Sequence record: OR769032.1
Length of the DNA stretch: 64,000 bases
Reading direction: 5' to 3' (one strand)
DNA from: Escherichia phage JoYop
This document shows, one piece after another, positions 16,312-60,919 of this stretch. How positions within the stretch are numbered: position 1 is the stretch's first letter; every line of letters starts with the position of its first letter. The translations under genes and the position numbers were made by a program. Below the pieces are notes generated by a model. It saw nothing but the letters and a program-made list of their open reading frames with translations. It was not told the DNA's origin and ran no database searches.

Positions 16312-17172
16312 TTACACTGCCATTTTTCCTTTCAAGACACCATGGGACTGATAATCTTTGAGAACGAAATCTCGTGCTGTCATATATTCAGTTAACCAAT
16401 ACATTTGAGTTTCAGTATCGCATTGACTGAATCCATTAGGCCAATTGATACTGAGTTTACATAGGTCCATAGGGGTTCTATTTAATATCTCTTTGCATTG
16501 CACAATATGGTTAGAATAAATGTGTGTATTACCACCAGAGAATATCAAATCACCTGGAACTAGTTCACACATGTCAGCAACAATATGCAAAAGAGCAGCA
16601 TAGCTCGCGATGTTAAATGGAAGACCGAGGAAAACATCTACTGATCGTTGATACCATTGGAGGTCAAGGTATCCGTTACGAACATTAAACTGATAGAACA
16701 TATGACAAGGTGGTAATGCCATCTGCTTAAGTTCTGCCGGATTCCACGCAGAAACAATTTGGCGTCTATCATTAGGAAATGTTTTAATACGATCAATAAC
16801 TTCTACAATTTGGTCTACACCGCCAAAATCACGCCATTGTTTTCCATAAATTGGACCAAGCTCACCGCTATGATATCCTAAATCTTTTGCTTGTTTTTCG
16901 TAATTTTCATCCCAAATCGTTTTCCCTGCAATTAAAGACCCGTGAGTACGCTGACGCAGGTCATTTACGTTAGTACTTCCTGATAAGAACCACAATAACT
17001 CAGAAATACAAGCATTCCAGGCGAGCTTTTTGGTTGTTACCGCAGGAAAACCTTTAGTTAAATCCCAACGCAATTTAGTACCAAACAGAGCAATTGTTCC
17101 TGTGCCTGTTCGGTCATCGGTTTCATAGCCATTTTCAAGGATATTTTTAATTAAATCTTGGTATTGTTTCAT
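16312..17172 (-). CDS. td: thymidylate synthase, uninterrupted
   Basis: 286 aa continuous; TS active-site region ALPPCH present; AGGTG RBS. Confidence 0.95.
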   Translation of the reverse strand: MKQYQDLIKNILENGYETDDRTGTGTIALFGTKLRWDLTKGFPAVTTKKLAWNACISELLWFLSGSTNVNDLRQRTHGSLIAGKTIWDENYEKQAKDLGYHSGELGPIYGKQWRDFGGVDQIVEVIDRIKTFPNDRRQIVSAWNPAELKQMALPPCHMFYQFNVRNGYLDLQWYQRSVDVFLGLPFNIASYAALLHIVADMCELVPGDLIFSGGNTHIYSNHIVQCKEILNRTPMDLCKLSINWPNGFSQCDTETQMYWLTEYMTARDFVLKDYQSHGVLKGKMAV

Positions 17173-17185
17173 TTAGCACCTATAA

Positions 17186-18143
<958 letters not shown>

Positions 18144-33701: not shown

Positions 33702-33731
33702 TTTGAATAAATATCCTTAAAAGGAGGGTCT

Positions 33732-34388
33732 ATGGCAGCACCTAGAATATCATTTTCGCCCTCTGATATTCTATTTGGTGTTCTAGATCGCTTGTTCAAA
33801 GATAACGCTACCGGGAAAGTTCTTGCTTCCCGGGTAGCTGTCGTAATTCTTTTATTTATGATGGCGATTGTTTGGTATAGGGGAGATAGTTTCTTTGAGT
33901 ACTATAAGCAATCAAAGTATGAAACATACAGTGAAATTATTGAAAAGGAAAGAAATGCACGCTTTGAATCTGTCGCCCTGGAACAACTCCAGATAGTTCA
34001 TATATCATCTGAGGCAGACTTTAGTGCGGTGTATTCTTTCCGCCCTAAAAACTTAAACTATTTTGTTGATATTATAGCATACGAAGGAAAATTACCTTCA
34101 ACAATAAGTGAAAAATCACTTGGAGGATATCCTATTGATAAAACTATGGATGAATATACAGTTCATTTAAATGGACGTCATTATTATTCCAACTCAAAAT
34201 TTGCTTTTTTACCAACTAAAAAGCCTACTCCCGAAATAAATTACATGTACAGTTGTCCATATTTCAATTTGGATAATATCTATGCTGGAACAATAACCAT
34301 GTACTGGTATAGAAATGATCATATAAGTAATGACCGCCTTGAATCAATATGTTCTCAGGCGGCCAGAATATTAGGAAGGGCTAAATAA
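33732..34388 (+). CDS. t: holin
   Basis: 218 aa; N-terminal transmembrane segment then large periplasmic domain; matches T4 holin T. Confidence 0.93.
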   Translation: MAAPRISFSPSDILFGVLDRLFKDNATGKVLASRVAVVILLFMMAIVWYRGDSFFEYYKQSKYETYSEIIEKERNARFESVALEQLQIVHISSEADFSAVYSFRPKNLNYFVDIIAYEGKLPSTISEKSLGGYPIDKTMDEYTVHLNGRHYYSNSKFAFLPTKKPTPEINYMYSCPYFNLDNIYAGTITMYWYRNDHISNDRLESICSQAARILGRAK

Positions 34389-58177: not shown

Positions 58178-58387
58178 TTAAATTACATGATTATTTATAA
58201 TAAATTCTCGCGGAACGTTAAAATACCCGATTTTAGTTAATATAACAACATCGCCGTTAATGATTACCGGAGAATAATCTTCTGGAGCATTAAATTTCCA
58301 ATGGGCTCTAATATTATATCCATCAGAACCAAATGCTCGAGTAGCCGGTCTCCCGGCTTTTTGCCATGCGTAGAAATCAAATTTCAT
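58178..58387 (-). CDS. hypothetical protein, 69 aa (soc.1-like position)
   Basis: ORF track; occupies the slot where I recall T4 carrying segF. Confidence 0.45.
   Translation of the reverse strand: MKFDFYAWQKAGRPATRAFGSDGYNIRAHWKFNAPEDYSPVIINGDVVILTKIGYFNVPREFIINNHVI
58192..58199 (-). promoter_or_regulatory. late promoter TATAAATA for soc
   Basis: Minus strand TATAAATAATC about 30 nt upstream of soc ATG. Confidence 0.65.
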
Positions 58388-58578
58388 TTTGAATGCTCTA
58401 TAATTAATTTTAAAGCTTCTTCACTGACATAAATTTCGTCATGACCTTCTGTAACTTCAACCATACGAAGCTGATTAGTTAAGAGCTCACATACGAGCCC
58501 TTTGTCATAATCTTTAAATAGCTGGTCAATACGTTTCTTGTGGGCTTTCTTAAGCTGGCGTTTATTTAAACGAGCCAT
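58384..58578 (-). CDS. hypothetical protein, 64 aa (soc.2-like position)
   Basis: ORF track. Confidence 0.45.
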   Translation of the reverse strand: MARLNKRQLKKAHKKRIDQLFKDYDKGLVCELLTNQLRMVEVTEGHDEIYVSEEALKLIIEHSK

Positions 58579-59096
58579 TAATAACCTCGGTCTTGACGAG
58601 CGAAGTTTTCAGCATTTTTCAGATAATAAAGTTTAAAGATTTCTTCAGCTGACATTCCAAGAGCAATGAATTTATTCATGAAAAAGTGAAATTGGTCAAT
58701 AAGTTCAAATTTAATTTCAAGCTGATCTTCGGGAGATAAATCTTGAATTTTTTTGGATTGCATTTCAGAATAACGTTTCTTCCAAGGTTTCCATACAGCA
58801 GAAGCTTCTTTTTCACCATTACTCATACCGCCAAGAGAAGTATATAGCTCGCGAGTTTCGTCTGCGATATAATCGTCTTGGTTTCGCAACCAAGCAAGAA
58901 CTTCTCCCGCAGTTTCAAGTGAATCGGGATGACGATTTGTTTCTGGTTTATCGTTAGCCAAACGAATCTGTAAATGCCGTTGCATATCAAGCATAACCTG
59001 CAGTGGGTCAATATTGTGCATAATATTCTCAGCATATGCACGATTTGCTTTATCAACACCTTCGATCAAATGAGCACATTCATTAAAGTAAGCCAT
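58578..59096 (-). CDS. 56: dCTP pyrophosphatase (dCTPase) gp56
   Basis: 172 aa; MazG-like; matches T4 gp56 at both ends. Confidence 0.88.
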   Translation of the reverse strand: MAYFNECAHLIEGVDKANRAYAENIMHNIDPLQVMLDMQRHLQIRLANDKPETNRHPDSLETAGEVLAWLRNQDDYIADETRELYTSLGGMSNGEKEASAVWKPWKKRYSEMQSKKIQDLSPEDQLEIKFELIDQFHFFMNKFIALGMSAEEIFKLYYLKNAENFARQDRGY

Positions 59097-59131
59097 TATT
59101 TTTTCCTTTCAATTCATGGGTTAGTAGATTA

Positions 59132-59155
59132 ATTATACAATAAATATATAAAGCA
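59132..59155 (-). promoter_or_regulatory. middle (MotA-dependent) promoter candidate for gene 56
   Basis: Minus strand reads TGCTTTA-N11-TATAAT about 40 nt upstream of gene 56 ATG. Confidence 0.45.
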
Positions 59156-59168
59156 ATAAGGAGGACAT

Positions 59169-59369
59169 ATGGTACAAAAATTAATGGCACTTGTCAATGC
59201 CATAAAAGGTAATAAAAAGCGTATAGCTTTTACTATTTCTGCTATGGTAGGAATTTTACTCTGGAACTTTATTTTATCACCAATTGCAATTGCGCATGGT
59301 GTTAATATTCCAGTAGTTACTCTTGATACATTCGTAGATTTAGCATTTGCTCTAGTTGGGCTAATTTAA
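59169..59369 (+). CDS. small hydrophobic protein, 66 aa, on opposite strand to all neighbours
   Basis: AAGGAGG RBS 4 nt before ATG; two predicted hydrophobic segments; stop overlaps stop of gene 61. Confidence 0.4.
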   Translation: MVQKLMALVNAIKGNKKRIAFTISAMVGILLWNFILSPIAIAHGVNIPVVTLDTFVDLAFALVGLI

Positions 59370-60394
59370 ATCTTAGCATATTTAGATAGCCGCATTTTAG
59401 CCATTAACCCCTGGGCAATATTATTTTTCATATATTCCATAATTTGTTCAGGGGTTGCACCTTCCTTTCTAATCATATCATTAACATCTTTAGATTTCCA
59501 GGGAGATTTATCCCAAAACATAACCCTTTCTCCTGCATTGACTAATTTAGTCATTCGCTTAATTGTATCAGGATGCCGAGGTTCATTATCTAAGACCCAC
59601 ACACGTCTATCTTTAAATGGAACAACTTCTAGGTCTAATTGGCCACCCGTAATGGCTATACCATTTTCAATAAAAAGTGAGTCGATAGGTCCTTCTAGAA
59701 CATATACATCACCATCTTTAACTCGTTCAACACCGTAAATTTTTGTTGCCTCAGGATAAGCTTTGATGGTGATATATTTTTGAGGAGCATCTTTCTTTAA
59801 TGCGCGTCCTTGAAAAGACTCAGCTTTTCCGTTAGCATTATAAATTGGAATAACAAGTCTAGGTTCAGAAATTTCCTTTTTGTATGTTCCTGGAGCTATG
59901 CTATTAACTAATTTAGGCCATTCAGATGTAAACCAAAGATACTTCCATTTATCCTTTGGAATACAACGAGCTTTTACATATTTTATAATTGGATGGTCTT
60001 CCGCCAGTTTATCTAATCTAATGCATGACGGAAGAGATTTAATTATTTTCTTCTCAGGTTGTTTAGGAAGTTCTTTAGGTTTTTCTACTGGACGACTTTT
60101 ACCTTTTTCTTTTCTTATTTCAAAGATATACTCACGATATAAATCAGGTTCAAACTCCTTTAAATATATTCCGATTGGTGCATGATAGTTGCAGTTATAA
60201 CAATGAATATTTCCTTCATTATTATCGCCATAATACCATCCACGGGCTTTATTTTGATCGGTTTTTGAATCTCCACAAACAGGGCATCTAAACCGTAATT
60301 TAAAAGTTGAACTATTATTTACTTGTGTAAATTTAGGTAAATGAGCTAATGCACGGTATGCAAACTCATTATCAATCCAAGGTATTGATGACAT
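59366..60394 (-). CDS. 61: DNA primase gp61
   Basis: 342 aa; N-terminal zinc ribbon CPVCGDS...CYNC; Toprim region. Confidence 0.93.
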   Translation of the reverse strand: MSSIPWIDNEFAYRALAHLPKFTQVNNSSTFKLRFRCPVCGDSKTDQNKARGWYYGDNNEGNIHCYNCNYHAPIGIYLKEFEPDLYREYIFEIRKEKGKSRPVEKPKELPKQPEKKIIKSLPSCIRLDKLAEDHPIIKYVKARCIPKDKWKYLWFTSEWPKLVNSIAPGTYKKEISEPRLVIPIYNANGKAESFQGRALKKDAPQKYITIKAYPEATKIYGVERVKDGDVYVLEGPIDSLFIENGIAITGGQLDLEVVPFKDRRVWVLDNEPRHPDTIKRMTKLVNAGERVMFWDKSPWKSKDVNDMIRKEGATPEQIMEYMKNNIAQGLMAKMRLSKYAKI

Positions 60395-60562: not shown

Positions 60563-60919
60563 TTAACCTCTATTCATAAAAGCATTAAAAATTTGGTCAT
60601 CAATCGACGGAATAGCAACCTTTTCTGCGTTATTTAGCAAATCATTAATTTCATCAGATAGCATAACACATGTACCTTTATTTCCTGTAATTGTTACTGC
60701 GCAATTACGAACGTTTTCTTTATCAAATTTTAGGTTAATATTTTCGTAGTGAAAATCCTTTAATGCTGAATATATTTTTAAAATAAAATTATCTTTTACT
60801 ACAATAAAACCGACTTCACTGTTAAAACGCGGCTCATGAAAACTGTAATAAACCTTTTCATCTATAAAATCGTATGAAATTTTTTCCATTTTTAAATATG
60901 GAAATTCAGAACTATACAT
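60563..60919 (-). CDS. hypothetical protein, 118 aa (61.2 position)
   Basis: ORF track. Confidence 0.45.
   Translation of the reverse strand: MYSSEFPYLKMEKISYDFIDEKVYYSFHEPRFNSEVGFIVVKDNFILKIYSALKDFHYENINLKFDKENVRNCAVTITGNKGTCVMLSDEINDLLNNAEKVAIPSIDDQIFNAFMNRG

Follow-up and report, generated by a model that had tools for sequence, protein, structure and literature searches.

The window analysed here, a 64-kb stretch (64,000 nucleotides) of DNA from Escherichia phage JoYop (OR769032.1), carries the genes for the dCTPase/dUTPase (gene 56) and the DNA primase (gene 61) on its minus strand, separated by an interval of 269 bp (59097..59365; about 270 bp in the original prediction). On the opposite strand lies a 66-codon open reading frame (ORF), which diverges from gene 56, its left neighbour, and converges on gene 61; the TAA stop codons of the two have the four nucleotides TTAA in common (Table 1). 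The strong AAGGAGG ahead of this ORF, its convergence with the primase gene and the overlap of the stops are all as first described from the sequence, and the accompanying claim that this is the only plus-strand gene in a long run of minus-strand early genes agrees with the carefully annotated relative SA20RB, where no coding sequence other than the homologous one is found on the plus strand over the first 32 kb. The window belongs to a Tequatrovirus, and a 2.1-kb stretch covering the junction is 96-97% identical, without gaps, to SHBML-50-1, UFV-AREG1 and ECML-134, among others.

Table 1. Features at the 56-61 junction (window coordinates)
Feature	Position	Strand	Basis
Gene 56 (dCTPase/dUTPase)	58578..59096	minus	ORF list; gp56 69% identical to T4 gp56; relatives annotate dCTP pyrophosphatase
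Candidate MotA-dependent middle promoter of gene 56	59132..59156	minus	motif match only
Putative late-promoter box AATAAATA, A(-13) variant of TATAAATA	59139..59146	plus	motif; 22 nt before ATG
Shine-Dalgarno AAGGAGG	59158..59164	plus	4 nt before ATG; read from sequence
Small membrane-protein gene (PHROG 2024), 66 codons	59169..59369	plus	ORF list, conservation, profile match, predicted structure
Terminator-like hairpin followed by UAAUUUUUGU	59174..59203	minus	8-bp stem 59203..59184; annotated terminator in SA20RB
Gene 61 (DNA primase)	59366..60394	minus	ORF list; gp61 99% identical to T4 gp61

The junction with and without dam

In T4, the DNA adenine methyltransferase gene dam lies between genes 56 and 61 (16846..17625 in NC_000866), an order that the original prediction gave correctly, as it had recognised that dam is missing here: a tblastn search of the 64-kb window with T4 Dam returns a best E-value of 1.1, no DPPY motif occurs, and we thus found no Dam-family N6-adenine methyltransferase in the whole window. 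This absence predicts only that the phage relies on its host for any GATC methylation of its DNA; in T4, mutants in dam are viable.

What did not survive is the implied view that the small ORF stands at this position instead of dam. T4 carries dam and, at 17738..17938, the same 66-residue ORF, with two amino-acid differences (97% identity) and likewise preceded by AAGGAGG. The 310 bp between dam and 61 that contain it are left empty in NC_000866 and AF158101, and a T2 record does not annotate it either. Replacement of dam by the ORF as a cassette in this lineage, as the ORF's place here, where T4 has dam, might suggest, retains practically no credibility and is already refuted by the T4 sequence with both genes: T2 and other dam-positive phages likewise have the same ORF beside dam, and in the alignment the window and T4 differ by a ~0.9-kb deletion or insertion, all of it left of the putative promoter box in front of the ORF. 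Otherwise the T4 56-dam-61 region (NC_000866 16270..18963; X01416) has the same gene order and orientation as the window, with gp61 99% and the small protein 97% identical and the middle promoter of gene 56 kept, whereas the window is without dam and its flanks and without segF, and gp56 is only 69% identical.

Dam is, to judge from these comparisons, an optional insert between the 66-codon gene and gene 56. A tblastn search over 50,697 phage records found T4-type Dam (at least 90% identity to that of T4) in ~182 records; the 66-codon ORF is present, at the same threshold, in ~502 Tequatrovirus records, which makes the dam-less form the common state, roughly two thirds of the Tequatrovirus records having no T4-type Dam at any position. 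What lies between the ORF and gene 56 varies in other ways as well: the slot is occupied by dam in T4, is empty here and in Mosigvirus and Gelderlandvirus, and in Moonvirus CF1 and Klebsiella phage phi1_146055 is filled by a MazG-like gene and a further ORF.

Several further differences were seen around the junction. The step in identity to T4 from gp61 and the small ORF to gp56 marks a mosaic boundary, and phages with a 100% identical small ORF may have a gp56 just 71.5% identical to that of the window, about as divergent from it as the gp56 of T4. Between soc and gene 56, where segF is absent, the window has two small ORFs (58178..58387 and 58384..58578). Farther to the right, a 118-residue ORF on the minus strand (60563..60919) lies between 61.1 and sp, where T4 has 61.2 (208 residues) and SA20RB has nothing, making 61.1-sp another variable slot.

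Conservation and distribution of the 66-codon frame

The length of the ORF is not significant by itself, as the 1 kb that follows contains two more plus-strand ORFs, of 66 and 101 codons, that are there by chance, and it is because of its conservation, not its length, that we regard it as a gene. By tblastn, the ORF was found in 692 phage records, 686 of which match at least 80% of its length and 67 of which are at least 99% identical to it. The lineages that carry the gene include Tequatrovirus, Mosigvirus, Gaprivervirus, Jiaodavirus, Gelderlandvirus and Moonvirus as well as Klebsiella phage phi1_146055. The Mosigvirus and Gaprivervirus relatives share ~50-55% identity with it, and those from Jiaodavirus, Gelderlandvirus, Moonvirus and phi1_146055 are detectable only by profile (E-values of 1e-11 to 2e-15 in small HMM searches). 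The PHROG 2024 profile matches over its full length (residues 2-66 to profile positions 1-65 of 65; E 1.5e-31).

In every lineage the gene lies on the strand opposite to the primase gene, adjoins its 3' end and occupies the 61-56 slot. Overlap with the stop codon of gene 61 is usual and not obligatory: a homing endonuclease gene separates the two in DK-13 (L004 2872..3621), a gap of ~108 nt in SP18 (L020 2111..2218), and a G+C-rich bidirectional terminator in KP185 (L021 2200..2242). No such ORF was found in the 56-61 slot of Karamvirus VIPECLUMC02, Tegunavirus TG1, Roth23 and Krischvirus, from which it follows that the gene is widespread, not universal, and dispensable for T4-like phages generally.

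The pattern of substitutions shows that purifying selection has kept the frame intact in seven or more lineages of T4-like phages. Within Tequatrovirus, dN/dS against the window's ORF is 0.04-0.15 and reaches 0.22 over all Tequatrovirus pairs; between genera it spans 0.12-0.48, at saturated synonymous sites (dS >1). When all six frames are compared between genera, the ORF frame has the lowest dN/dS (0.25-0.29), and the variable sites at codon positions 1, 2 and 3 number 42, 19 and 55. Across an alignment of seven lineages, the Shine-Dalgarno core AGGAG is invariant and little else upstream is conserved; the initiation region is unstructured by prediction.

It could be argued that the ORF is untranslated and that its DNA is conserved for signals on the opposite strand, namely the terminator of gene 61, the middle promoter of gene 56, which also primes oriA, and, in T4, the promoter of dam. 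There is indeed a terminator-like hairpin within codons 6-12, the gene 56 promoter abuts the leader of the ORF, plus-strand ORFs of similar length arise nearby by chance, and the ORF was never called in the curated annotation of T4. However, these signals span just ~30 of its 201 nt, and the frame has stayed open at 63-69 codons despite ~45% amino-acid divergence and saturated synonymous divergence, with its Shine-Dalgarno sequence and ATG retained in all lineages; as the dN/dS minimum falls in the ORF frame and third positions vary most, we regard this explanation as very improbable.

The frame antisense to the ORF was considered as well, since in the window, T4 and Mosigvirus the gene 61 frame runs on beyond its stop without interruption over the whole ORF. 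This openness follows from the ORF being without Tyr codons, and we rejected the antisense frame as a real coding frame or as a read-through extension of gene 61: it contains stops in some members (L010, Gaprivervirus), its dN/dS between genera is higher, and its variability by codon position is wrong for a coding frame.

In the databases, the exact protein sequence of the window is found in 154 contigs, always under the name 'hypothetical protein', and the PHROG 2024 members RB32ORF030w, RB68_032 and wV7 YP_007004774 are the same protein, with no differences. The exact sequence of the T4 protein was not found in NCBI protein sources. Pfam and NCBIfam gave no match at E-values up to 10, no relatives were found in the PDB by sequence search or Foldseek, and Foldseek against BFVD returned family members only, one of them with an unverified 'Holin' name. 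An exhaustive search of 1.84 billion representatives yielded only small proteins of T4-like phages; two long repetitive proteins that also scored proved spurious on inspection. We found no mention of the ORF in the literature on unannotated T4 small proteins, on ribosome profiling or under the locus name RB32ORF030w, nor in the text of a T4 proteome/transcriptome study, two T4 reviews and the HIDEN-SEQ preprint. The gene family is thus already in the databases, uncharacterised, and the junction is ordinary for this phage group. Taken as a whole, we consider it probable that the junction is an ordinary dam-less T-even form with a real, conserved gene for a 66-residue inner-membrane protein (PHROG 2024), which is present in T4 and was omitted from its reference annotation.

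Signals on the two strands

On the minus strand, the candidate promoter of gene 56 consists of a MotA box TTGCTTTA (59156..59149), an 11-nt spacer and TATAAT (59137..59132). SA20RB carries a middle-promoter annotation at the homologous site, and the T4 counterpart, TTGCTTA-N13-TATAAT, lies directly upstream of gene 56. The small ORF had been said to overlap this promoter; by the coordinates, it is the leader and the candidate promoter of the ORF that do so, and the coding sequence is untouched.

On the plus strand, within the spacer of this same promoter, lies a candidate late-promoter box. The late promoters of T4 are made up of the 8-bp box TATAAATA and lack a -35 element, and of the 50 that have been listed 32 are perfect, 9 have A(-13) and 1 has a TA-to-AT change (PMC2988020). 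The AATAAATA variant upstream of the ORF is a box of this type without a -35 element and differs from the perfect box by A(-13), the commonest variant among the listed promoters, with the reservation that it is a 7-of-8 motif in AT-rich DNA, placed here inside the promoter spacer of the opposite strand. NATAAATA occurs on the plus strand just 7 times between 28 and 64 kb, the copy at the ORF among them. Another of the seven directly precedes the Shine-Dalgarno sequence of the holin gene t in the window (33706..33735), with the same variant and layout, AATAAATA followed by AAGGAGG, where the homologous site in T4 is a perfect TATAAATA. No sigma-70-type promoter was found on the plus strand.

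A TATAAATA-type box precedes the ATG by 12-22 nt in every lineage examined. It reads AATAAATA in Mosigvirus, GATAAATA in T4 (17709..17716), as opposed to AATAAATA in the window, CATAAATA in Gaprivervirus, GATAAATA and CATAAATA in Jiaodavirus and ATTAAATA in Gelderlandvirus and Moonvirus, and is a perfect TATAAATA in phi1_146055; the Gaprivervirus box and the CATAAATA copy of Jiaodavirus lie near the Shine-Dalgarno sequence and would leave a leader of only ~6-10 nt. In T4, where dam parts the ORF from the promoter of gene 56, the alignment shows that the box has stayed beside the ORF and not beside that promoter. Late genes of T4 are transcribed once DNA replication has begun, in dependence on gp55, gp33 and gp45, from a box about one helical turn ahead of the start. 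The early and middle transcripts of T4 all run counterclockwise, and only late ones are of either polarity (PMC2988020). From the clockwise strand and the late-type box in every lineage we infer that the 66-codon ORF is a late gene. Rightward late transcription by the gp55-RNA polymerase would start from the box, at about 59152-59153, giving a leader of ~16 nt, and the ORF would be translated from its strong AAGGAGG.

The hairpin on the minus strand (fold energy -9.9 kcal/mol, z -2.08), which is embedded together with its U-run in codons 2-12 of the ORF, probably terminates the transcription of gene 61. Transcripts of gene 61 would then end within the first codons of the ORF, where both strands of the DNA would be in use. 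For the ORF itself, a terminator is annotated downstream in SA20RB, yet the plus strand after the ORF is here no better than shuffled sequence (z -0.45). With no convincing terminator of its own, the late transcript should extend into gene 61 as antisense RNA, and with the hairpin of gene 61 inside the ORF the two transcripts should overlap as antisense partners.

This raises the alternative that the RNA is the main product, late antisense transcription into gene 61 helping to shut off the primase mRNA and the 3' end of gene 61 acting earlier as antisense to the ORF mRNA, with the peptide secondary. Such an arrangement would be in line with the convergence and overlapping stops found in most lineages, with the position of the gene 61 terminator inside the 5' end of the ORF, with the lack of a significant plus-strand terminator after it, and with the fact that T4 transcribes both strands of some sites at different times (PMC2988020). 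An RNA-only role, however, explains neither the purifying selection on the amino-acid sequence nor the invariant Shine-Dalgarno sequence, and it misfits KP185 and DK-13, where a bidirectional terminator and a homing endonuclease gene, respectively, separate the ORF from 61. We therefore hold it to be quite improbable as the main function, although a role of the RNA and a role of the peptide could coexist.

Predicted topology and function of the protein

The 66-residue protein is predicted to consist of a basic, amphipathic N-terminal helix, one transmembrane helix (~19-42) and a tail. In an AF2 model, built from 24 family members (pLDDT 77.5), helices span residues 2-13, 16-42 and 52-63. The biological-hydrophobicity sum is ~0 kcal/mol for the best 19-mer (19-37), and the insertion-energy sum of the last 19 residues is +6 to +12 kcal/mol in all six lineages tested. 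Both of the hydrophobic segments originally reported are thus present, but a membrane-spanning helix is predicted for the first alone; the second, hydrophobic as it is, corresponds to a 12-residue helix in the model and, at these energies, probably forms no transmembrane helix. Across lineages, the N-terminal tail contains 4-6 Lys/Arg and the C-terminal tail 0-1. In the window's protein (~7 kDa) the last such residue is Arg18, and trypsin would leave one hydrophobic peptide of 48 residues, which shotgun proteomics of the usual kind would probably overlook. The likeliest topology, judged from simple scales and a medium-confidence model, is therefore single-pass, N-in/C-out, and not a two-helix hairpin. 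The basic N-terminus (5 Lys/Arg) would be cytoplasmic and the C-terminal 24 residues would be periplasmic or lie against the outer leaflet.

With few exceptions, residues W32, N33, F34, P38, H43, G44, P48, V56 and D57 and an acidic residue at 53 are conserved in the three closest genera, and distant members retain W-N-[FY], P38, G44, P48, L-[DE] and V56. The family-wide motif can be written as W-N-[FY]..P....G...P...L-[DE]..V, which in Tequatrovirus, Mosigvirus and Gaprivervirus usually takes the form ...A-H-G...P...L-[DE]..V-D. All conserved residues fall in the outer half of the predicted membrane helix or in the predicted periplasmic tail, and this outward placement makes it most likely that the protein has a binding partner on the periplasmic side of the inner membrane.

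A few database labels, 'Holin' in UniProt (phage OE5505) and 'holin family protein' (phage EAWsc9), would make it a holin or antiholin-type lysis protein. It is small, predicted to span the membrane and probably late, and its promoter-to-Shine-Dalgarno layout is like that of the holin gene t in the same window; in size, membrane location and probable late expression it also resembles the class II holins and pinholins, such as S68 of phage 21. It differs from these in its one predicted transmembrane helix, where small holins have two or more, in its basic N-terminus and in its hydrophobic C-terminus, which ends in ...DLAFALVGLI without Lys or Arg, whereas holins typically end in a charged tail. 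Nor does the gene lie in a lysis cassette, since no endolysin or spanin gene adjoins it and its neighbours are the primase and the dCTPase in all lineages, and the Pfam and NCBIfam holin models are without a match even at E-values up to 10. Furthermore, T4-like phages already have the T holin (here at 33733), and PHROG 2024 belongs to the category 'unknown function', which leaves the holin labels unsupported. On balance we find a holin or antiholin unlikely.

Other small T4 proteins offer partial parallels. Imm, Sp and RI, which serve superinfection exclusion and lysis inhibition, act at the inner membrane or in the periplasm. The genes for Imm and Sp are early and lie on the strand opposite to that of the 66-codon ORF, and RI is of the late type, its N-terminus forming a membrane segment and its C-terminal part lying in the periplasm, by which the protein can be likened to it. 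The predicted periplasmic tail of the 66-residue protein is, in contrast, just ~24 residues long, and neither Pfam, the search of 1.84 billion representatives nor the fold searches revealed a similarity to Imm, Sp or RI in sequence, profile or fold. We can only guess at a late role in the envelope, for example in the timing of lysis, in lysis inhibition or in the exclusion of superinfecting phage. A fuller version would be that T4 has an overlooked late gene, whose 66-residue inner-membrane protein, with its conserved motif facing the periplasm, serves a late envelope process (signalling for lysis inhibition, control of holin or antiholin, or late superinfection exclusion) and whose antisense RNA lowers the primase mRNA late in infection; as a whole, this is a speculative proposal that we would not expect to hold.

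For the window itself, the preferred reading of an ordinary junction with a real small gene means little, as this is the commonest form of the junction among T4-type coliphages and the ORF has been deposited hundreds of times as a 'hypothetical protein'. The gene is, on the other hand, as well conserved as many named T4 genes, yet it is missing from NC_000866, AF158101 and a T2 record, and studies that start from the reference gene list are consequently blind to it. We see a modest interest in this gap in the T4 annotation, which concerns a probably late, clockwise gene for a predicted membrane protein that converges on the primase gene. It is a rare clockwise gene in the early, counterclockwise region, with a late promoter apparently back-to-back with the middle promoter of gene 56 and oriA, and these paired promoters, together with the convergence on the primase gene, would make the junction a compact test case for how T4 uses its two strands over time.
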